A DNA stretch of 64,000 bases, taken from positions 6,814-70,813 of the forward strand of contig CAJJNQ010000005.1 of NCBI GenBank assembly GCA_905193155.1, given 5' to 3'. Origin of the DNA: an uncultured Christensenella sp. (lineage in GTDB: Bacteria; Bacillota; Clostridia; Christensenellales; UBA1750). The notes beneath the pieces are model-generated. The model worked only from the letters and a program-made list of their open reading frames with translations. It was not told where the DNA came from and did not search any database. The translations under genes were made by a program, and so were the position numbers. The first letter of the stretch is position 1, and each line of letters starts with the position of its first letter. Positions 26,565 through 35,661 of the stretch are shown here, piece by piece.

Positions 26565-27209
26565 TCACGCGTACGCGCGCTCTTCGAGCACGCAGCGCAC
26601 CGTCACGCGGGATTGGCCACCGACTGTGCAGGTAAACAGCGTCATATCCCAATCCCCGCTCGTCATCTTTTCAACCGCAAAAGGTGAAAGAATCTCCATC
26701 TCAGCGGTTCTATATCGAAATACATTTCCGTCCATGTCTGTGAAGATTACTTCTTCACCCTGCGGCAGGTCTTTCAGCCGTCCAAAATGACTGCGGTAGT
26801 TATGAGCAGCGATCACCATGTTGTTCAGATAGACAGAACCCGCATAACGGCAAGGAGCAGTTCTCAAATTGGAATAACTCCATTCACCGATCACAGGCAG
26901 ATCCAGCGACAAAGCCGGTATGGTCAACACACCGCTATATTCCTGACCGTCTACTTCCTCCTGCGGCATATCCATTTCCGGGTTCAGCACATAATCTGGA
27001 ATATAGGCCTCCTCCAATGACTCGCCGGATGGGAGATCAGGCAGGCTCATATTGATGTGCTCCTGAATATCGGAGTTCAGCTGCTCGAGAACCCGTTCGG
27101 ATGAATCCCCCGCCGCCTTATCGCACCAAAGATTATAAGCCGCAAGAAGGAGCGCCGCCGTCAGCAGCAGCAGCCCCATCCCCATGCAGATCTTGCTTTG
27201 TTTACTCAT
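26565..27209 (-). CDS. Sortase (transpeptidase), class not assigned
   Basis: 214 aa. N-terminal TM, VIAAHNYRSHFGRL (catalytic His region), MTLFTCT (TLxTC-type Cys), SRVTVRC (Arg). 8-nt overlap with the upstream pilin gene. Confidence 0.8.
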   Translation of the reverse strand: MSKQSKICMGMGLLLLTAALLLAAYNLWCDKAAGDSSERVLEQLNSDIQEHINMSLPDLPSGESLEEAYIPDYVLNPEMDMPQEEVDGQEYSGVLTIPALSLDLPVIGEWSYSNLRTAPCRYAGSVYLNNMVIAAHNYRSHFGRLKDLPQGEEVIFTDMDGNVFRYRTAEMEILSPFAVEKMTSGDWDMTLFTCTVGGQSRVTVRCVLEERAYA

Positions 27210-28458
27210 GATCCCTATTCTTTCTCGAAGCAGTTCCCACGATCAAAAAAGCCAGCCCCGTCACAGCGAGGATTGGTACCGGCCACCAGAGCACACCTGT
27301 CTGAGGCAGCTTCTGCTTGCTCAGCATATTGGTGAGCACAAATGTATCGCCATTCAGCCGAACAGCGGATCGATAGCCGGAAACCGCAGCCTCGCGAATC
27401 GTCCAGCTGATTTCCTTACCGCTTTGATCTACCTTGGGAAGCTTATCCCATGTGTACTGCCACCCGTTTGCTTCACTCAAGGTTCGGGTTTCAAAAGCAA
27501 CGTCGTTTTGCAGCAGCGTCACCTGCACCGATTCCGGACGGCGATTCTCATACCCCTGATCATCCCATACTTTCAGCACCGTCCGCGTGACGGTATCTCC
27601 CGACGGCGGATCGGGCGCATAGGTATTTGTGACGGTAAAGGTGATCCCCTCGGCACTGATGAGCACCGTGTAATGGGGAAGCTCCTTTTCCACCACACTC
27701 CAGATGATCTTGGAACCGTCCCGGTTATATTCGGGAAGCTTTCCCCAGAAATGCCGCCAGCTGTTCGCCTCGCTGAGGATCACTGTGTCGTATACAATGT
27801 TGTCCTTGAGAAGCTGAACTGTGACTTGCTGCGGACGGAGCTGAGGAATATCCTTCTTCCATACCTTCAGAACCTTGCGGTCGACCGTCTGTTCGGACGG
27901 TACAGGCGGATTTTCCGTCTGCGTATGCTTGGGAACTGCGGTCACATCGTATGACCAAACGTCGCTTTCCTTCTGGGGATTGGGCAAAGAAACCAGAAAC
28001 GGCTCGGTGATGTAGGTAAAACCGTCCTTCACCAGCTTCCGGCCGATAACCAGATACAGGCCCGGCTTCAAGCCCGCCTGCTGATTCGGGAAACGGAGGA
28101 TCCCCTGCCCGCCCGTCTTTCCGCTATCCAAGGGCTTGAGTTGATCCCGATCCGCGTACACAGCGAGTGTTTCCGCAAGGCTTTTCCACGCATCGGCAGA
28201 TAGACCGTTGACCGAGACAGGATACTTCCGGAAATCCCCCGCAAGGGAAAACTCCGCATAGGCATCCACATCGGCCACAAAATACAGGTCAAAAGGCACA
28301 TCTGATACCGGTTTTTTGCTGTGCCTGAATTCAATCGTGAGGCGCACGTCCCTGTTCAGGTCGATCACAGCGGCTGCAAACGTCTGAGCAGGGAACAGGG
28401 CGAGCACGCACAGCAAACACAGCAAGCCTGTGATCACTCGGCTACTCAGTTTTCGCAT
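27202..28458 (-). CDS. LPXTG-anchored minor pilin / CnaB-repeat surface protein (LPQTG)
   Basis: ORF 27202..28521. I prefer the ATG at 28458 (MRKLSSRVITGLLCLLCVLALFPAQTFA signal peptide). Two CnaB-like repeats (VLKVWKKDIPQLRPQQVTVQLLKDN..., VLKVWDDQGYENRRPESVQVTLLQND...). C-terminal KLPQTG, then TM, then RKNRDHE. Confidence 0.85.
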   Translation of the reverse strand: MRKLSSRVITGLLCLLCVLALFPAQTFAAAVIDLNRDVRLTIEFRHSKKPVSDVPFDLYFVADVDAYAEFSLAGDFRKYPVSVNGLSADAWKSLAETLAVYADRDQLKPLDSGKTGGQGILRFPNQQAGLKPGLYLVIGRKLVKDGFTYITEPFLVSLPNPQKESDVWSYDVTAVPKHTQTENPPVPSEQTVDRKVLKVWKKDIPQLRPQQVTVQLLKDNIVYDTVILSEANSWRHFWGKLPEYNRDGSKIIWSVVEKELPHYTVLISAEGITFTVTNTYAPDPPSGDTVTRTVLKVWDDQGYENRRPESVQVTLLQNDVAFETRTLSEANGWQYTWDKLPKVDQSGKEISWTIREAAVSGYRSAVRLNGDTFVLTNMLSKQKLPQTGVLWWPVPILAVTGLAFLIVGTASRKNRDHE

Positions 28459-29287
28459 TTTTCTTTCCTCCGTCCGATTTCTTTTTCTTCCCCGATACCA
28501 GCAGGATGAACAGCAGTGCAAGAAGCATCGGCAGGGCTACGGCGGGCGCAACGATCAGGGGATCAATCTCCATGGCGTCCGAAGTGACTCGGATCTCCTC
28601 TGATTCATTTTCCACGCGGTGGCCGCGCACCAGAAGCCGGTGGGAGTTGACGCCGTAAGGCGTGCACGTGACGAGGGTGCACAGATCCTTCCCTTTTTCG
28701 ATTGCCAGTGCGGACAGGTCGTTCGGCTCGACAATCAGGATCTGATCCACTTCATAGGTCATCACTTCGTCCAACACGCGGATCACAAACTTATCCCCTG
28801 CCACCAGCTTATCCAGATTGGTAAAGAGCTTCGCGCTGGGAAGACCGCGATGCCCAGACAGAACGCAGTGGGTGCCTTCCCCCCCTACCGGCAAGCTGGA
28901 CCAGTCCAGATGCCCAACGGCGATCTGAAGCACCTCGTCCTCCGTGCCATGATAGATGGGTAGAGAAATTTGGATGGTCGGGATCTCAATATATCCCATG
29001 ACGCCCGTCCCATTGACGTCAAGGAGTGCATTGTATGTGCTGCGATCGCTTTCGGAAAGGAAGAAGGCCTTGTATCTGCCGGGGAGCGCCGCGTTATACT
29101 CCCTTGCTTCCCCGATCAAGCGGTCGTATTTATCGGCATTGAGGTTTCTCACCTCTTCGGAATAGGTTGCCACCGCCTGGGACGCATGGAAGGAATTCCA
29201 ATAGTCGCTCAAGGAGGGATACAGAAGCAAGGACAGTCCTGCAAAAAACACCAGAATCAGCAGCATCGTTGAGAGTTTTCTTTTCAT
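28442..29287 (-). CDS. Class C (pilus-polymerising) sortase
   Basis: 281 aa. N- and C-terminal TM helices, VLSGHRGLPSAKLF, TLVTCTPYGVNSHRLLVRG. Confidence 0.9.
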   Translation of the reverse strand: MKRKLSTMLLILVFFAGLSLLLYPSLSDYWNSFHASQAVATYSEEVRNLNADKYDRLIGEAREYNAALPGRYKAFFLSESDRSTYNALLDVNGTGVMGYIEIPTIQISLPIYHGTEDEVLQIAVGHLDWSSLPVGGEGTHCVLSGHRGLPSAKLFTNLDKLVAGDKFVIRVLDEVMTYEVDQILIVEPNDLSALAIEKGKDLCTLVTCTPYGVNSHRLLVRGHRVENESEEIRVTSDAMEIDPLIVAPAVALPMLLALLFILLVSGKKKKSDGGKKNAKTE

Positions 29288-29409: not shown

Positions 29410-30942
29410 TCAGTCGTCGGTCTTATTCATACGCTTTTTCGTGACGAGAACAACACCCGCCCCCACAGCCAGCAGGCCGCCGAGGAGATAGAACACGGTG
29501 GTGCCGACGCCGCCGGTTTCAGGAAGGGTCGAACCGGTTTTGTTTACAATATTTGTACTCAGCGCATCGGAGGCCACAGCCGTGCCGACCATAACCGTCA
29601 CGCTCGTGTAATCGGAGCCATCCTCCACATAGGAAGCGGAGATCTTGAACTGTACAGGCTCGGACAGCAGATTATAGCCACCGGGCGCTTTTGTCTCATA
29701 CAAATAGTAATCAATGGTATCGTCCAGTCCCTTGATAACGGGATCGCCTGCCTCGATCACATAAACAACGTTCGCATCGCCGTCCATTGCAACGCGGTAT
29801 ACGCCATTGGCGGCCTTCACCATGCCGATAAGCCCCGTGGTAACAGCAGGAATGCCTTCATCATTGCAGTTCATATCCGCAACCTTGAGTGCGCCGTTTT
29901 TAGACAGGGCAAGCTTTGCGCCGGTCAACGCTTTGCCGGTTTCGTCCACCTTGTTGACGCCCATCTTGAACGTCCAGTCATAGACCTTCTTTTCAGGGGT
30001 CTTTCCTTTCTCGGTGTCAACATTGGGATTGTTGCTGTATTCAAGATAAGCCGCGTTTTCCTGCTTTCCCTCGTCATACGCCTTGGCGTCAGCATTCAGC
30101 ACACCGGTATAGTAAGTAAAAAGCTCATTGTCATGGGCCATCTTTCCATCCTGAATCGCCTTGAGAATATCGACCCGGACGGAAAAGCTATTGCCGTTTG
30201 CGGTTACGGTGTAATACTCGGCAGGGAGCACAGTTGCATCGTTGACCTTGATCGTGACATCTGCGCTGGTCTTGACATTGGAAGTCAGTCCGGCAGACAT
30301 GGTATCGTGGATGATATAGTCGTATTTTGTGTAACCCGATGTATTGGGAACCTTGGTGATAGTGCGGAACTCAACGGTGTCTCCGATCTGGTTGTCGCCC
30401 ACAACACCCCATTCGCCGTTTTCATTATGCTTGATCTGCTTATTCAGTGTCGGCTTATCGCCCTTCGGAGCTGCGATCACGTTTCCGACAACCTTCATCA
30501 AATAGGCTGTATAGAAATCGTCTGCACCGGTGAGGGTATTGTCACTATCCTTGACCAGATAGTAACCGGGATTCAGATTGGTAATCGTATAGATACCGGC
30601 TCCGGCAGTGCTCACAGAGGGATTGGTCAGATATGACGCAACCGCCTTAGCAAAGGCACGCGCATCTTCCTCCGTGGTCAGGCTTTTTGCCTTTTCAGCT
30701 GCATTACCGAGCGCTGTCTGTCCTTCCGCCGTGATCCCGCTGCCCCACACAATGTCGGTAAGCACGGTCTTTCCCTCAACGGTCTGAAGGTCGCCCGCAA
30801 AGATCTGGTATGCCTGATAGGTATGGCCGGTCGATGAATTGGTGATGGTGATGGTGTACGATTCTCCCGCCGCAAGCGCGGATACGCCCAGTGCAAGCAC
30901 CAGCGCAAGCGTCAGCAGGAAAGCCAAAGCTCGTTTTATCAT
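29410..30942 (-). CDS. Major (backbone) pilin, SpaA/isopeptide-type, LPETG sorting signal
   Basis: 510 aa. Signal peptide, N-terminal TGHTYQAYQIFAGDL, E-box-like YYLYETKAPGGYNLL, C-terminal LPETGGVGTT, then TM, then KKRMNK. Confidence 0.85.
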   Translation of the reverse strand: MIKRALAFLLTLALVLALGVSALAAGESYTITITNSSTGHTYQAYQIFAGDLQTVEGKTVLTDIVWGSGITAEGQTALGNAAEKAKSLTTEEDARAFAKAVASYLTNPSVSTAGAGIYTITNLNPGYYLVKDSDNTLTGADDFYTAYLMKVVGNVIAAPKGDKPTLNKQIKHNENGEWGVVGDNQIGDTVEFRTITKVPNTSGYTKYDYIIHDTMSAGLTSNVKTSADVTIKVNDATVLPAEYYTVTANGNSFSVRVDILKAIQDGKMAHDNELFTYYTGVLNADAKAYDEGKQENAAYLEYSNNPNVDTEKGKTPEKKVYDWTFKMGVNKVDETGKALTGAKLALSKNGALKVADMNCNDEGIPAVTTGLIGMVKAANGVYRVAMDGDANVVYVIEAGDPVIKGLDDTIDYYLYETKAPGGYNLLSEPVQFKISASYVEDGSDYTSVTVMVGTAVASDALSTNIVNKTGSTLPETGGVGTTVFYLLGGLLAVGAGVVLVTKKRMNKTDD

Positions 30943-31008: not shown

Positions 31009-34000
31009 CTACATCGTCCTCCTTTCCCCTTTGCGCCTCCGGCTGCATCCCAGTAGGAAGCCTGCCGCCAGCATGAGCGCACCGCTCAACGTGAACAAAG
31101 CGCTTCCCGGTCCGCCCGTTTCAGGGAGAACGTAATCCGACTGGATGCGGGTGTTCGTGATGATAAAAATATTTCCTTCGCGCTCGATATTCACCTCAAA
31201 GTCTTGAATCGGGATCTCTTCAACGGAGTAGTCATATGTCACCGTCTGACCCTCCGTATTCTCGCCGGTCAGCGGCAAATCCGTAAGCGTTTGCTCCCAT
31301 CCGTTTTCCGCCGAGAGCATCAGCTTGCCATAGACCGTCTTGGCGTTTTCGTTCCCATCCGGGATCTGATAGATACTGATCTCGATGCTGGGCACCGTTA
31401 TCTCCATCAGGTCTGAGCCGTCCTTCGCTTTCCAGAGCTTTTTAACGATCACAGAGATGCCGTCTCCCTCGGATTTGTCATTGGAGATCTGGATATGTCC
31501 CCCATTTTCTATGCTTCGTCCGTTAAAGTCATCCGGATGAGCGTACGGAGGCTTCTGGTCCTTATCCTCCATCCAGAAGAAGACCGGATCGCTCTTCAGA
31601 ACATAGTGTGTCGGCGCTTTTGTTTCAACCAACTTATACGCCACGTTCGGCTCCAGCGAAGTCAGCTTGATGGTTCCATCGGAATCCGTCGTCCACGGAT
31701 CCGCTGTATGCACCTTTTCCCAGTCCGTCCCCTCCCACTTGAAGAGATCAAACTCTGCTCCCGGCAGCACGACTCCCACGTTGCCCGTTTCGACCTTCTG
31801 TACGAAGATATGGCGCTCATCGGGTTCCGGCTCGTCGCCCGGGTCTTGAGGTTCGGTGATTTTTCCGAGGAAATCCGTTCGGTGGGACTCGGCGTTTACA
31901 TTTACACGGTCCGCTACGACGGTTCCGTTCAGATTTTGCCCGATATTGACGGTTGCTCCGGGCGCAATCACCGCGCCCGTCATCAGGTGGGTATGGATCG
32001 TGACGCCGCCGGCGTTCACAAAATTCCAAATCACCTTGCCCGCATAGAATTCCGTCACCTCGCCGACCCCTTGCTCCTGACCGTCAATGACGACCCTTGC
32101 CTGCGGAAGGTAGACCTGCGAAACGCCTGCGCAGTCCACATTGATGATGACCGTCCCGTTGTGGCCGGACCGAAAGCCGTCGATTTGCAATTTTCCGCCA
32201 AATTTTGACGCAAGCTCAGATGCACGGATCGACTCAACCCCTACGTCAGACGGCCTGCGCAGGATCAGCTTGCTGTGATCCGCCTGCAATTCCGATGCGG
32301 ATTTGAAGTCCAGATTTGCTTCGCGGAAGCCGCTCAATCTGGCCGAGATCCGCTCGATCTCTCTCCTTACGCGGTTCAGATCGATGAACGGGTCTTGCTC
32401 AGTATTCCTATCCTGAACCAAATGGCGCGGTCTGCTGATTTTTGTGCCGTTGATTGAAAACGCATTTCCATTGTCTGTAAAATCAACCGTATTCCCGCTG
32501 CCGATGGCCAGCACATGATCATTCCCGGAGGCGCTGTCGGGATGAACCTGAGCATATTCCTGAATATAGCTCAACTCATGAGGATACTGATTCGTACCGA
32601 AGTTGCTTCGGGCAAACAGTTTTTTAGCCAGCACATTGCCGTTCGTATGGGTAGACAGCGTCGCCGTGTCGAACGCAACAATATGGAAGCTGCCTGCCGT
32701 CCCGAGAGGGCTGTTGGAATTGTAGTATCTGGAATACTCCGGGTCGCGCAGAAAGCGATCCTTGACGTCGTTATACTGAAGATCGTAATTTCCGGCAATC
32801 AGTTTGTCCGGAGTCCCTAAGCGCACAAACAGAAACTCCGTGCTGTGGGGGAAGGAATCGTCGGACACCGTCAGGGAAGTCACATTTCCATCTCCATCAA
32901 GGACAGGACGATATTCCTTCGGCTCCGTAGGCTCGCTTTGGGGATTTCTGCAATAGTAGAACTTCAGCTCATCCTCAGGCTCCACATGGGCAAACAGCCC
33001 GCTTTGCCAGTTCATGACCAACTCATACTTTCCATACGGGGAAACACTCTGATCGTTGTTATCCTTCCTGACCAGATCGATCTTGTAGATCGCCGTTTTC
33101 TCAATGGTGTGTCCATGAGCCGCAAAGGAGTTCAAAATGTTCTGATAATCCGCCGCATCTTGAATTCTGATCCGGAGGCTGTATTCTTCAGGCGCATATC
33201 CGATATTTTCATCAAGAAGCGTAAGGGACGCCGTCAAACCTGACGACTCATCCGTATAGGTAAAGGTTTTTCCGTTTTTCGTCTCCGGCGGCGCGCTCCT
33301 CATTGCGATGCAGGATTGGTCATGCTTATGTTCCTGAAACTGGCAAAGGAGTGTCCCCTGCGCGTCCCTGCACGCCTCTGTGTGCGTATGTTCCGGCAAT
33401 CCGCATCCAAAGATGACGTTTTTATCTACACAGTCCTCCGTGTGGACGTGCTCCGGGATACTGCAAATCAGGGCATGGCTTTCATCATAGCATTCTTCCT
33501 TGTGGGTGTGTTCGCCCATGCCGCAGTGATACATGATCTCGGGCACTTCTGTAACGTCGTAACACGAGGCGTCATGCCGGTGCTCCTCCTTCCCGCAGAT
33601 CAGAACCTTCTTTTCTTCGGCAGAGTCAAAGCAGGCCTGGCTGTGTTGATGGCAAAGAGTCTGCACCTTTCCGCAGGCAAGGACGCCATTTGTATAGCAA
33701 GCCTCGGTGTGTTCATGCGGAATGGCTTCTCTCTGCGTGCAGATCAGGCTTTGCCGCGTCTTTTTACATTCTTCCGCATGGGTATGAGGCTCCTGCTCTT
33801 CTTTACCGCAGACGAGGGAAATTTCTTCGGTATAACAGTCCGCGCCATGCGTGTGCTCCTCGCTTTCCTCCAAGCCGCAGCTCAGCACCTGTTTTTGCTC
33901 ATAGCACTGTTCCGAATGCCGGTGTCCTTCGCTTTCCTCAAGACCGCAAACAAACTCCGTTTCCTCTGCATAACAAGAATCCGTATGCGCATGCTCCGGG

Positions 34001-34374
34001 ATCTCCGGCAAGGTGCAGATCAGATCCCCGTCTGAGGAAAAGCAGTTGGCGTCATGCTTGTGGATCACAAAGTCCGAATATCCGCAAATCAGGCTTCCAT
34101 CTGCACCATAGCACGCATCGCTATGGCTGTGCACCGGCTGCTCGCAGTGCAGACCCGAAGCCCCCATCTGCGTCTCATAACAGGATTCATCATGAGCATG
34201 AACTTCTTTCCCGCAGCCAGGCGTTTGAGTCAGCGTGAGTGCAGGCAAAATCAAGGCATATGTCGTACAGAATACCACGATGCAGCTCAGAACCGTTACG
34301 ACCTTGCGCCAGCGGTTTCTGCGGGCGCGGACGCGGCGGTAGCCGGTAATCTGCTCCGACAGGCGTTGTCTCAC
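31009..34374 (-). CDS. Pilus tip adhesin candidate: signal/TM, 14 Cys/His repeats, Ig-like region, choice-of-anchor-A-like domain, SpaA-like and CnaB-like domains, LPETG
   Basis: 1121 aa. PLGTAGSFHIVAFDTATLSTHTNGNVLAKKL resembles choice-of-anchor A. LPGAEFDLFKWEG...YKLVETKAPTHYVL is SpaA-like. ISVIVKKLWKAKDG... is CnaB-like. C-terminal VLPETGGPGS, then TM, then RRRKGERR. Confidence 0.85.
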   Translation of the reverse strand: MRQRLSEQITGYRRVRARRNRWRKVVTVLSCIVVFCTTYALILPALTLTQTPGCGKEVHAHDESCYETQMGASGLHCEQPVHSHSDACYGADGSLICGYSDFVIHKHDANCFSSDGDLICTLPEIPEHAHTDSCYAEETEFVCGLEESEGHRHSEQCYEQKQVLSCGLEESEEHTHGADCYTEEISLVCGKEEQEPHTHAEECKKTRQSLICTQREAIPHEHTEACYTNGVLACGKVQTLCHQHSQACFDSAEEKKVLICGKEEHRHDASCYDVTEVPEIMYHCGMGEHTHKEECYDESHALICSIPEHVHTEDCVDKNVIFGCGLPEHTHTEACRDAQGTLLCQFQEHKHDQSCIAMRSAPPETKNGKTFTYTDESSGLTASLTLLDENIGYAPEEYSLRIRIQDAADYQNILNSFAAHGHTIEKTAIYKIDLVRKDNNDQSVSPYGKYELVMNWQSGLFAHVEPEDELKFYYCRNPQSEPTEPKEYRPVLDGDGNVTSLTVSDDSFPHSTEFLFVRLGTPDKLIAGNYDLQYNDVKDRFLRDPEYSRYYNSNSPLGTAGSFHIVAFDTATLSTHTNGNVLAKKLFARSNFGTNQYPHELSYIQEYAQVHPDSASGNDHVLAIGSGNTVDFTDNGNAFSINGTKISRPRHLVQDRNTEQDPFIDLNRVRREIERISARLSGFREANLDFKSASELQADHSKLILRRPSDVGVESIRASELASKFGGKLQIDGFRSGHNGTVIINVDCAGVSQVYLPQARVVIDGQEQGVGEVTEFYAGKVIWNFVNAGGVTIHTHLMTGAVIAPGATVNIGQNLNGTVVADRVNVNAESHRTDFLGKITEPQDPGDEPEPDERHIFVQKVETGNVGVVLPGAEFDLFKWEGTDWEKVHTADPWTTDSDGTIKLTSLEPNVAYKLVETKAPTHYVLKSDPVFFWMEDKDQKPPYAHPDDFNGRSIENGGHIQISNDKSEGDGISVIVKKLWKAKDGSDLMEITVPSIEISIYQIPDGNENAKTVYGKLMLSAENGWEQTLTDLPLTGENTEGQTVTYDYSVEEIPIQDFEVNIEREGNIFIITNTRIQSDYVLPETGGPGSALFTLSGALMLAAGFLLGCSRRRKGERRTM
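33310..34215 (-). repeat. Coding tandem repeat: 14 units of C-x(4-7)-H-x-H-x(3)-C, period about 20-23 aa (residues 54-355 of the tip adhesin)
   Basis: HAHDESC, HSHSDAC, HKHDANC, HAHTDSC, HRHSEQC, HTHGADC, HTHAEEC, HEHTEAC, HQHSQAC, HRHDASC, HTHKEEC, HVHTEDC, HTHTEAC, HKHDQSC. Each is preceded by a Cys 4-7 residues before the first His. 29 Cys in about 300 aa. Confidence 0.9.
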
Positions 34375-34392: not shown

Positions 34393-34983
34393 CTATCGAA
34401 TCGGGCCGAAGCTGTGCAATGGCCAGATACAAAAAAGTACTTTGCCGACGATTTGATCTTGCGCGATACAACCTACCGCCGAATTTCTGGAATCAACGGA
34501 GACCGAGCGATTATCCCCCATCAGGAAATAACGGTTATCCGGCACCTGATACGGCAGGTCGATATTGGTCTGTCCCAGCGATTTTTCCGCGAGATAGGGC
34601 TCGTCCAGTTCCTCATTGTTGACAAAAACGTTCCCGTCTTCGTCGATAAAAACCCAATCCGACGCGCCGGCGATGAATCTCTTGATCAGGAGCTTGTTTC
34701 CATGATAAAACGCGGCAATATCTCCCGCCTTAAAGTCATTTGTCTTCAAAGAGATCACAAGCTGGCCATCCTTCAGCGTTGGCGACATCGAGCTGCCATA
34801 AATGCGCAGCACCGGCATCCAGAGCGTCGCAACCAGCACCGCAACCGCTGCAACGACCAGCAGCACCGCAACCGTGCTCTTCAGCGTTTTTCCATAACGC
34901 GCCTTATAGCGCAGGCGATCCCTTTCCCGTTCGATTTGCTCCGCCGTGGGTAGGCTGACAGGTCTTTTATTCCTTCCGCTCAT
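34393..34983 (-). CDS. Signal peptidase I (S26 family), pilus-locus associated
   Basis: 196 aa. TM anchor, GSSMSPTL (Ser box), LIKRFIAG (Lys box), GDNRSVSVDSR. Confidence 0.9.
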   Translation of the reverse strand: MSGRNKRPVSLPTAEQIERERDRLRYKARYGKTLKSTVAVLLVVAAVAVLVATLWMPVLRIYGSSMSPTLKDGQLVISLKTNDFKAGDIAAFYHGNKLLIKRFIAGASDWVFIDEDGNVFVNNEELDEPYLAEKSLGQTNIDLPYQVPDNRYFLMGDNRSVSVDSRNSAVGCIAQDQIVGKVLFCIWPLHSFGPIR

Positions 34984-34986
34984 CTC

Positions 34987-35460
34987 TTATCCGCCTCTTT
35001 TTACAAGCGCTTGCACTTCCGGATGCGCTGCGACAAGCTCATGGACGCGCCTTTCAAAGCGATCCCACTTTTGCTCCATCTGGCGATCCGCCTCGGCGAG
35101 CGTAATCTTCGCCTTTTGTTCCGCATCCCGGACGATCCAGGCTGCCTGGCGCTCCGCCCCTTGCAAGATCGACTGCCGCTGCTTTTCCGCCTGATCCACT
35201 CCGGCTTTCAGTTCCGACGCTGCCGCCTGAAGGGACAGCAGATATTGATCCGCCGCTGCCTGCGCTGCCTCAAAGACGCCGTTTAAGCCCATGGCCGCCT
35301 CCGCGATGGAACCCGCGTTGGAGATATGGATCTCTCTGTCCGCAAGCGCTTTTTCAAGCCGCTTCACCTGAGCAGCAGCCGCCTCGTTTTGCTTTTGCAG
35401 CTCATAGATAATTTCGATCAATTCCACGCGGCTCAGGTGTTGTAGTTCCTTATCCGTCAT
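34987..35460 (-). CDS. Conserved coiled-coil protein of unknown function
   Basis: ORF 34987..35505. I prefer the ATG at 35460 (MTDKELQHLSRVELIEIIYELQKQNE...) with GGAGGA 6 nt upstream. Ala/Gln/Glu-rich heptads. AGSIAEAAMGLNGVFEAAQAAADQYL segment. 3-nt gap to the signal peptidase gene. Confidence 0.65.
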   Translation of the reverse strand: MTDKELQHLSRVELIEIIYELQKQNEAAAAQVKRLEKALADREIHISNAGSIAEAAMGLNGVFEAAQAAADQYLLSLQAAASELKAGVDQAEKQRQSILQGAERQAAWIVRDAEQKAKITLAEADRQMEQKWDRFERRVHELVAAHPEVQALVKRGG

Positions 35461-35661
35461 CAGCTCTCCTCCGGTCATCCTACAGGGGTCTGGAAAAAAT
35501 CCCACGGAAGTCCTTCATCCGGTGCTAAACCGCGCATCTGTTGCAGCAGCAAACAGATAAATGCCATTCCTCCGTAAAGGAAGCATCGCGCGGCTATCCT
35601 CTCTCCTGTTTTACCCCTTCCCCATCGAAGAGGCTTAACTAACAATTAAAGTTGTTTTAAT

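Follow-up and report, generated by a model that had tools for sequence, protein, structure and literature searches.

The 64,000-nucleotide window analysed here (uncultured Christensenella sp.; GenBank assembly GCA_905193155.1, contig CAJJNQ010000005.1, positions 6,814 to 70,813) carries on its minus strand a gene (31009..34374) with a GTG start that encodes a predicted pilus tip pilin, or adhesin, of 1121 amino acids (aa) ending in an LPETG sorting signal. We found that residues 54-355 of this protein (33310..34215, minus strand) form an array of 14 tandem units of the pattern C-x(4 or 7)-H-x-H-x3-C and that this array is an undescribed domain family, in which a known organelle and a known chemical idea meet in an unusual compartment and position. 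The conservation of the Cys and His residues and the modelled fold of the units suggest that the units are probably metal-clamped structural knuckles. A sequence-only reading of this DNA had described the repeat in the one protein; beyond that, we found that the array characterises the N-terminal part of a very large protein family and goes together with a conserved leader and a signal peptidase.

Fourteen Cys-His units at the predicted distal end of the tip protein

A regular-expression scan of the translated open reading frame (ORF) placed the H.H...C motifs of the array at residues 59, 82, 105, 128, 151, 174, 197, 220, 242, 265, 289, 309, 329 and 349, that is with steps of 23, 23, 23, 23, 23, 23, 23, 22, 23, 24, 20, 20 and 20 residues. 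All 14 HxHxxxC sequences listed in the sequence-only reading were recovered exactly. Its HxHx3C spacing also held, while the upstream Cys, which it had put at 4 to 7 residues, takes only two positions, 4 residues away in units 1, 2 and 10-14 and 7 residues away in units 3-9, and the period is 20-24 aa rather than about 20-23. The 302 aa of the array contain 29 Cys, 31 His and 43 Glu (29 Cys and at least 28 His had been claimed), compared with 3 Cys and 20 His in the 767 residues that remain. Each unit has two Cys, so that counts are even but for a third Cys in unit 9, and the net charge of the array is about -40. Three stretches can be told apart: "head" units whose positions are conserved (units 1-4, CGYSDFVIHKHDANC and CTLPEIPEHAHTDSC among them), generic acidic units of 23 aa (units 5-9) and shorter units of 20-24 aa (units 10-14). 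In 20,000 composition-matched shuffles of residues 54-355 the motif occurred 0.29 times on average and at most 4 times, compared with the 14 occurrences observed. Tandem Repeats Finder found no DNA-level tandem repeat in 33310-34215, indicating that the units are old and diverged and do not result from a recent expansion.

The array follows the leader of the protein (residues 1-47; 34234..34374, minus strand), in which a hydrophobic stretch spanning roughly residues 25-47 comes after an Arg/Lys-rich N-terminus; the leader segment IVVFCTTYALILPA is kept across the family. The leader is presumed to be a signal peptide or a signal anchor and may possibly be cleaved after LPA. As the sequence-only reading had proposed, the array directly follows this segment and is N-terminal of the adhesin, SpaA, CnaB and LPETG modules, all of which were matched in Pfam and NCBIfam. 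The N-terminal position of the array together with the LPXTG end is taken to fix the topology of the protein, and the positive-inside rule together with the sortase signal implies that everything after the hydrophobic stretch is extracellular. The array is thus predicted to be the part of the tip protein most distant from the wall anchor.

The Cys and His positions are conserved among units, relatives and close variants

The consensus of 1,040 units reads L-[IV]-C-G-L-E-E-x-E-[EG]-H-[TV]-H-T-[ED]-x-C-Y-x5; given that it was anchored on HxHxxxC, its 100% His is circular, and a census anchored on Cys only was used instead. In this census His occupied both positions in 1,851 of 1,937 C...C[YFW] sites (95.6%), and in unanchored MAFFT alignments the four ligand positions were invariant or nearly invariant columns. 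Units most often recur every 23 residues. Spacing within H-x-H-x3-C is constant; the first Cys precedes it by 7 residues in 564 units and by 4 in 249, and the Cys of the next unit comes 8 residues on. A Cys opens 281 of 298 arrays, which agrees with C...HxH...C as the self-contained unit. Almost all units (97.9% of 2,023) are net negative, with a mean charge of -3.8, and the surface of the units varies, with only the ligands, a Tyr and two or three hydrophobic positions kept. One unit type with a hydrophobic stretch ahead of the His, CGYADFVxHxH (CGYSDFVIHKH in the window protein), was found in 81 of 150 proteins, each time as a single copy near residue 100; in three-unit fragments a CxLPEIxxHxH unit typically comes next. 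The positions of these two types indicate that the first four units are positionally conserved and that the generic acidic units are present in variable number.

The exact window protein is present in a public collection, where its 90%-identity cluster has 306 members, and the 14 full-length members examined are all 1121 aa long. Among these 14 close variants 41 array positions vary, none of them at the 57 Cys/His ligand positions (hypergeometric P = 9e-5). Nei-Gojobori dN/dS, calculated for the window gene against two variant genes from other samples, was 0.29-0.42 for the array and 0.54-0.69 for the rest of the tip protein, values that rest on small counts with a consistent direction. A strong Shine-Dalgarno sequence, AAGGAGG, lies 8 nt 5' of the GTG start. 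Judged by these sequence comparisons the tip gene is intact, under purifying selection and no remnant, and its intact ORF and strong ribosome-binding site (RBS) disagree with the earlier proviso that it might prove an unexpressed remnant.

Predicted structure of the units and database searches

AlphaFold2 modelling of the 315-aa array with a 76-row alignment gave a mean pLDDT (predicted local distance difference test score) of 71 and a pTM (predicted template modelling score) of 0.31; the central generic units reached a pLDDT of 80-93, and confidence was low for the two terminal ones. With a three-unit fragment (residues 112-182) and 54 gapless homologous fragments the best model had a pLDDT of 89.2 and a pTM of 0.49. 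DSSP assigned to each modelled unit a one-turn helix over the three residues ending at the second Cys, a 7-residue strand starting from the conserved Tyr, and isolated bridges at two places, the first His and the residue three positions ahead of it. In the models the linker strand would pair with the His segments of its own and of the next unit, giving a continuous ribbon.

Scanning residues 54-355 against Pfam-A and NCBIfam with hmmscan returned no family at E<=1, and a sequence search of the PDB gave no match at E<=10 with either the array or the 54-row three-unit profile, so that the claim that the array lies outside the named families stands. The array had no fold match in the PDB either, and its predicted structure corresponds to none of the beta-beta-alpha, knuckle and ribbon folds. 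Literature searches found no description of the repeat.

The array is the constant head of a large family of surface proteins

A word-indexed search with residues 46-360 gave 342 matches, all annotated as "hypothetical" and all from metagenome-assembled genomes of Clostridia, for example Faecousia, Lachnospiraceae and Muricoprocola. An exhaustive HMMER profile search over 1.84 billion cluster representatives extended the family to 7,264 representatives of 50%-identity clusters at E<=1e-3, of which 3,215 matched at E<=1e-30. The best 150 of these proteins have 600-3,900 aa and 7-45 units, 130 of them carry an LPXTG-type end, and nearly all share a leader composed of a basic stretch followed by VVVFCTTYALILPA-IT(M/L)E. 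The array in relatives is usually preceded by the conserved leader VVFCTTYALILPA, and in an unselected 28-sequence alignment the leader residues were invariant or nearly so. A Pfam census of 28 relatives detected CHAP in 15, an LPXTG anchor in 14, SpaA in 13, Cna_B in 9, DUF7601 in 7, and DUF5979 and FctA in 4 each, with VWA, LRR_5, CBM26, RicinB and pAdhesive_15 in a few. According to this census the array is a constant head on tip and surface proteins whose adhesive domains vary.

The sequence-only reading had suggested a survey of other Clostridia, and the repeat was indeed found widely and with varying copy number, from 3 to 45 units among relatives and 7, 8 or 14 among orthologues sharing the C-terminal domains. 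The closest orthologues, L034 (6941-10462, 1173 aa) and L055 (1622-5236, 1204 aa), are 52-56% identical to the window protein over residues ~371-1117. They have only 8 and 7 units, respectively, and in both a CHAP domain of ~200 aa lies between the array and the adhesin, whereas the window protein has 14 units and no CHAP domain (no Pfam match). By this comparison the window protein is a CHAP-less, array-expanded variant that has lost the enzyme or never had it.

A scan for the leader peptide in one genome per GTDB species yielded 386 loci from Oscillospiraceae, Lachnospiraceae, Ruminococcaceae, Acutalibacteraceae, Butyricicoccaceae and Erysipelotrichaceae, with Dubosiella muris NM09_H32, Erysipelotrichaceae bacterium OPF54 and Sarcina sp. 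DSM 11001 as cultured carriers (taxonomy as given in the record titles). The named carriers of the array are all gut anaerobes. We then compared 80 fetched loci by tblastn with the neighbour genes of the window; these loci are biased towards proteins with the VVFCTTYA leader, which served as the search pattern, and the counts are lower bounds because many loci end at contig ends. A homologue of signal peptidase I lay directly upstream of the array gene in 66 of the 80 loci and one of the coiled-coil ORF upstream of the peptidase in 52, and the major pilin followed downstream in 45 and the class C sortase in 33. The conserved order is coiled-coil ORF, signal peptidase I, tip protein, major pilin and class C sortase, and the tip protein usually appears as the first pilin gene of this operon in gut Clostridia and Erysipelotrichaceae. 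Because the leader and signal peptidase I go together in 66 of the 80 loci, they look like a cognate pair that databases have not named; the conservation of the leader across families of Clostridia and the intact catalytic boxes of the operon's peptidase suggest that the two form a processing pair.

A separate type of protein, of ~470 aa and chromosomally encoded (L001 10001-11422, P0106), comprises no more than an ordinary signal peptide and a CHAP domain flanked by two arrays, the second of which ends in a CKCKCH tail. It has neither a sortase signal nor pilus genes as neighbours, indicating that the array also serves wall hydrolases outside pili.

A proposed metal-clamped acidic rod and its alternatives

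We propose that each ~23-aa unit is a minimal metal-binding knuckle in which four side chains would clamp one metal ion, most likely Zn2+: the Cys of the C-G turn, the two His of the extended H-x-H and the Cys that ends the one-turn helix. Two thiolates and two imidazoles are the classic tetrahedral ligand set of Zn(II). A unit of 23 residues with three or four hydrophobic side chains needs such a clamp in order to fold. Three of the four ligands are at fixed spacing and the last pair is placed i/i+4 on the modelled helical turn; ligand pairs on helical turns are known as H-x3-H in C2H2 fingers and as H-x3-C in anti-sigma and CsoR-type sites. As the carriers are strict gut anaerobes, exposed thiols can stay reduced. 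The 8-residue linker (Y-x5-L-I/V) would be a beta-strand that bridges the His-bearing segments of its own and the next unit, locking the units into a thin continuous rod instead of beads on a string. Such a rod would be strongly acidic, with about -4 per unit, and, coming directly after a cleavable or anchoring leader, would be the free distal end of a sortase-assembled tip pilin. It would be exported first, fold on metal binding outside the reducing interior of the cell, and serve this pilus type as its own structural "lead/reach" module, variable in length, which holds out the head of the tip protein. That head includes a CHAP hydrolase in many relatives; in the window protein it is only the pAdhesive_15 adhesin, placed behind the rod. 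We hold the passive "lead/reach" role less firmly than the knuckle itself, and the two combined are evenly poised between right and wrong.

Several observations weigh against this proposal. The five three-unit models scatter, with pLDDT values of 89, 83, 66, 43 and 43, so that only two of five are confident, and a pTM of 0.31 for the full array makes the geometry between units uncertain. A purely structural spacer would normally be placed between the adhesin and the shaft, and here it is at the free end; the conserved first four units and the frequent fusion to CHAP hint at a more specific job. As to the metal, sequence cannot tell Zn from Ni, Co, Fe or Cu.

Known small metal-clamped domains resemble the array in part. 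C2H2 fingers and CCHC knuckles also gather two Cys and two His in about 15 residues, occur in tandem, and are each too small to fold without a clamp, and in C2H2 fingers the last ligand pair is likewise on a helical turn (H-x3-H, compared with H-x3-C in the array). However, the spacing differs, C-x4/7-H-x-H-x3-C in the array compared with C-x2-4-C-x12-H-x3-5-H in fingers or C-x2-C-x4-H-x4-C in knuckles, and the canonical spacing was absent from all 14 units of the window protein and from about 1,000 units of relatives. Moreover, zinc fingers and knuckles are intracellular binders of nucleic acids, whereas the array is bacterial, acidic, extracellular and sortase-anchored. The pneumococcal histidine-triad (Pht) surface proteins carry several HxxHxH motifs, each binding one Zn. 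Like the array they bring several short His-rich metal motifs to a Gram-positive surface; unlike it they lack Cys, hold 5-6 copies within larger domains, are not part of pili and show no tight 23-aa tandem. The Strep_his_triad model of Pfam had no match in the window protein, whose motif is HxH followed by Cys and not HxxHxH.

Stalk repeats are a further comparison. The G5-E repeats of SasG and Aap associate in a Zn-dependent manner, and these proteins need Zn for their function. SasG/Aap, Rib and "periscope" stalks share with the array a variable number of small tandem domains that make an elongated rod in an LPXTG protein. The stalk repeats of fibrillar adhesins, however, are beta-domains of 70-130 aa between wall anchor and adhesin and often vary by way of near-identical DNA repeats, whereas the array units have 23 aa, lie N-terminal of the adhesin and have diverged in their DNA. 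The periscope concept, that of a stalk of variable length, is cited in PMC9210967; a stalk of that type was rejected for the window protein, as near-identical DNA repeats are missing and the 14 full-length cluster members are uniform in length.

An unlikely alternative, though one that deserves attention, is that the array itself is a multivalent, repeat-based binding surface comparable to the choline- or wall-binding repeats of autolysins; it would bind a polymer on other bacteria, food particles or the host and would guide the CHAP enzyme in relatives. Such repeats and the CROPs of clostridial toxins have a similar tandem, hairpin-like arrangement with a period of ~20-23 aa, and the choline- and wall-binding repeats, like the array in relatives, are associated with a peptidoglycan hydrolase domain. 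They are, however, rich in aromatic residues, free of metal and not acidic, whereas an array unit has one aromatic residue and a charge of about -4, and neither CW_binding_1/2 nor another binding-repeat family of Pfam matched the window protein. The distal, most exposed position of the array would suit binding, as would the CHAP domain lying next to or between arrays in the 15 CHAP-bearing relatives, the P0106-type mini-proteins, whose array-CHAP-array order is the autolysin layout of a catalytic domain plus repeats, and the positional conservation of units 3-4 (CGYADFVxHxH / CxLPEIxxHxH). Against it, the unit surfaces are variable and uniformly acidic, unlike those of known wall-binding repeats, which would be unfavourable for anionic walls or mucins, the number of units varies among orthologues, and real phages among 50,697 phage records lack the array, the single match being a bacterial pilus operon. 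Given this uniform acidity, variable surface and variable unit number, a structural rod is favoured over a specific receptor site.

The CHAP domain beside the rod in relatives suggests that the head of the pilus tip acts on peptidoglycan, either that of the own wall at emergence or that of neighbours. A bolder version of the rod, which we regard as rather improbable, starts from here: the leader, the Cys2His2 rod and, where present, CHAP would constitute a wall-threading needle or a neighbour-wall-cutting "lead head" of the Clostridial pilus. An acidic, metal-stapled needle would be exported first, be freed by the signal peptidase of the operon and thread the thick wall ahead of the growing fibre, with CHAP-bearing members also cutting the wall, much as the FlgJ hydrolase caps the rod of the flagellum; in another version, the head would engage and cut the walls of neighbouring bacteria.

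Two further explanations are both very doubtful. One takes the array for a surface store or scavenger of Zn, Ni, Co or Cu that would feed uptake or buffer a toxic metal, in the way Pht proteins handle zinc. It could draw on an exposed position, on up to 14 potential sites here and 45 in relatives, and on acidic surroundings that attract cations, but one tip protein per pilus fibre makes a poor sink, and four-ligand Cys2His2 sites are, by established coordination chemistry, typically tight and structural, not exchangeable. The genomic setting does not favour storage either: genes for pilus assembly, and not for metal transport or regulation, are the neighbours in 66 of the 80 loci, and the ABC system next to the window locus is of the Opp type. 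The other explanation, already considered in the sequence-only reading, is a spacer covalently laddered by disulfides within or between units, in which His would be secondary. It leaves unexplained why His-x-His is found at 95.6% of Cys-defined sites and is invariant among close variants, and since His is conserved almost as well as Cys, a ladder of disulfides only has become less plausible; oxidative folding would also be unexpected from the physiology of strict gut anaerobes, although the protein is extracellular and has two Cys per unit, in even counts apart from the extra one in unit 9. Compositional low complexity or a decaying remnant, for which nothing but the biased composition speaks, has practically no chance of being correct, the former ruled out by shuffles that never gave more than 4 motifs and the latter by the intact ORF with its RBS, the 306-member cluster, a dN/dS below 0.5 in the array and an intact operon.

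If the units of the proposed rod bind metal, they would add a rare case of a thiol-based metal domain outside the cell, one that could work only in anaerobic habitats, and would offer a new element from which to build rigid or extensible protein rods. Should the needle or cutting-head version be true, bacteria would have their first extracellular polymer of zinc knuckles, and pili their first tip with an enzymatic head that cleaves walls; such an enzyme on the tip protein of a pilus seems not to have been described. The sortase pili of gut Clostridia (Oscillospiraceae, Lachnospiraceae, Ruminococcaceae) and Erysipelotrichaceae are almost unstudied, and the array marks the tip protein of a widespread pilus type along with thousands of giant surface proteins. 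The leader/peptidase pair and the tip CHAP raise the testable questions of how Gram-positive pili cross the wall and of whether gut commensals turn their pili against or upon each other. The family merits a domain model, which would end its "hypothetical" annotation.

The remaining modules of the tip protein and the pilus operon

Behind the array, residues 356-555 (32710..33309, minus strand) form a middle domain directly N-terminal of the pAdhesive_15 domain; it matched no family in Pfam or NCBIfam and is conserved only in the orthologues L034 and L055, at 48-49% identity. The pAdhesive_15 / choice-of-anchor A domain (31882..32709, minus strand; residues 556 to about 831-836), matched in Pfam and NCBIfam, is presumed to be the adhesive domain. 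Searching a plasmid collection with the tip protein gave matches to this domain only, in lactobacillus and enterococcus adhesins. It is followed by a SpaA prealbumin-like stalk domain (31561..31803, residues 858-938), a Cna_B stalk domain (31150..31446, residues 977-1075) and the LPETG sorting signal with its hydrophobic segment and basic tail (31012..31128, residues 1083-1121), all on the minus strand.

The genes around the tip gene are also on the minus strand. Upstream, at a distance of 19 nt, lies the gene for signal peptidase I (S26; 34393..34983), with intact SMSPT, KR and GDNR boxes, and upstream of it one for a coiled-coil protein of 172 aa (34987..35505), which matched no Pfam family and showed only sub-threshold similarity to DivIVA and V-ATPase-E. 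Downstream are the major pilin of the SpaH/EbpB family (29410..30942; GramPos_pilinBB and SpaA domains, LPETG), in which APKG is a candidate pilin motif, the class C (pilus-polymerising) sortase (28442..29287; active site TLVTC), which scored 276 bits against a cut-off of 160, a minor or basal pilin with two Cna_B domains and LPQTG (27202..28521), and a second, divergent sortase (26565..27209; TLFTC). The mechanical ORF of the LPQTG pilin starts with TTG and overlaps the sortase gene; its signal peptide begins at Met22 (28458), and this Met, downstream of the TTG, is probably the true start; another assembly's call of this protein has 418 aa. The locus thus fits the pilus-tip assignment made in the sequence-only reading. 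The tip gene adjoins a backbone pilin and a class C sortase, and its product combines an N-terminal export signal and a C-terminal LPXTG sorting signal with SpaA/CnaB isopeptide-type stalk domains and a distal adhesive domain; together, gene order and domain architecture make the assignment as a tip pilin well supported.

Sortase-pilus operons with a signal-peptidase gene are known from the FCT loci of S. pyogenes (sipA/lepA), and the sortase-pilus locus of C. perfringens VR-10B includes a signal peptidase as well (PMC8088525). The window operon shares with these loci tip, backbone and minor pilins, sortase(s) and a signal peptidase I homologue. It differs in that the peptidase keeps its Ser and Lys boxes and is paired with a conserved tip-pilin leader, and the VR-10B and FCT tip pilins are not known to carry a Cys/His array. 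Housekeeping genes flank the operon (Opp transporter, 2-hydroxyacid dehydrogenase, alpha-galactosidase, AsnA, GDH and GMP synthase), and because they surround it the locus is taken to be chromosomal; origin from a mobile element was rejected on the same grounds.

A few records of the pilus operon carry unexpected labels. The match in the phage collection, L087 (MT835974.1, "UNVERIFIED: Bacteriophage sp.", from human faeces), holds a bacterial pilus operon with the coiled-coil ORF, the signal peptidase, a 1724-aa tip protein with array and CHAP, the major pilin and the class C sortase, and is probably not a phage; a scan of viral contigs found no relative of the array protein. Among L025, L031, L076 and L033 the operon was present in bins labelled Prevotella sp., Bacteroides uniformis and Bacteroidaceae, for which mis-binning of a Gram-positive operon is the most likely reason, and also in a bin of Parolsenella (Actinomycetota). 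Finally, two copies of the locus lie 8-15 kb apart on one contig in L020/L035, L019/L054, L038/L040 and L042, an arrangement that points to tandem duplication of the pilus cassette in some Lachnospiraceae and Acutalibacteraceae.

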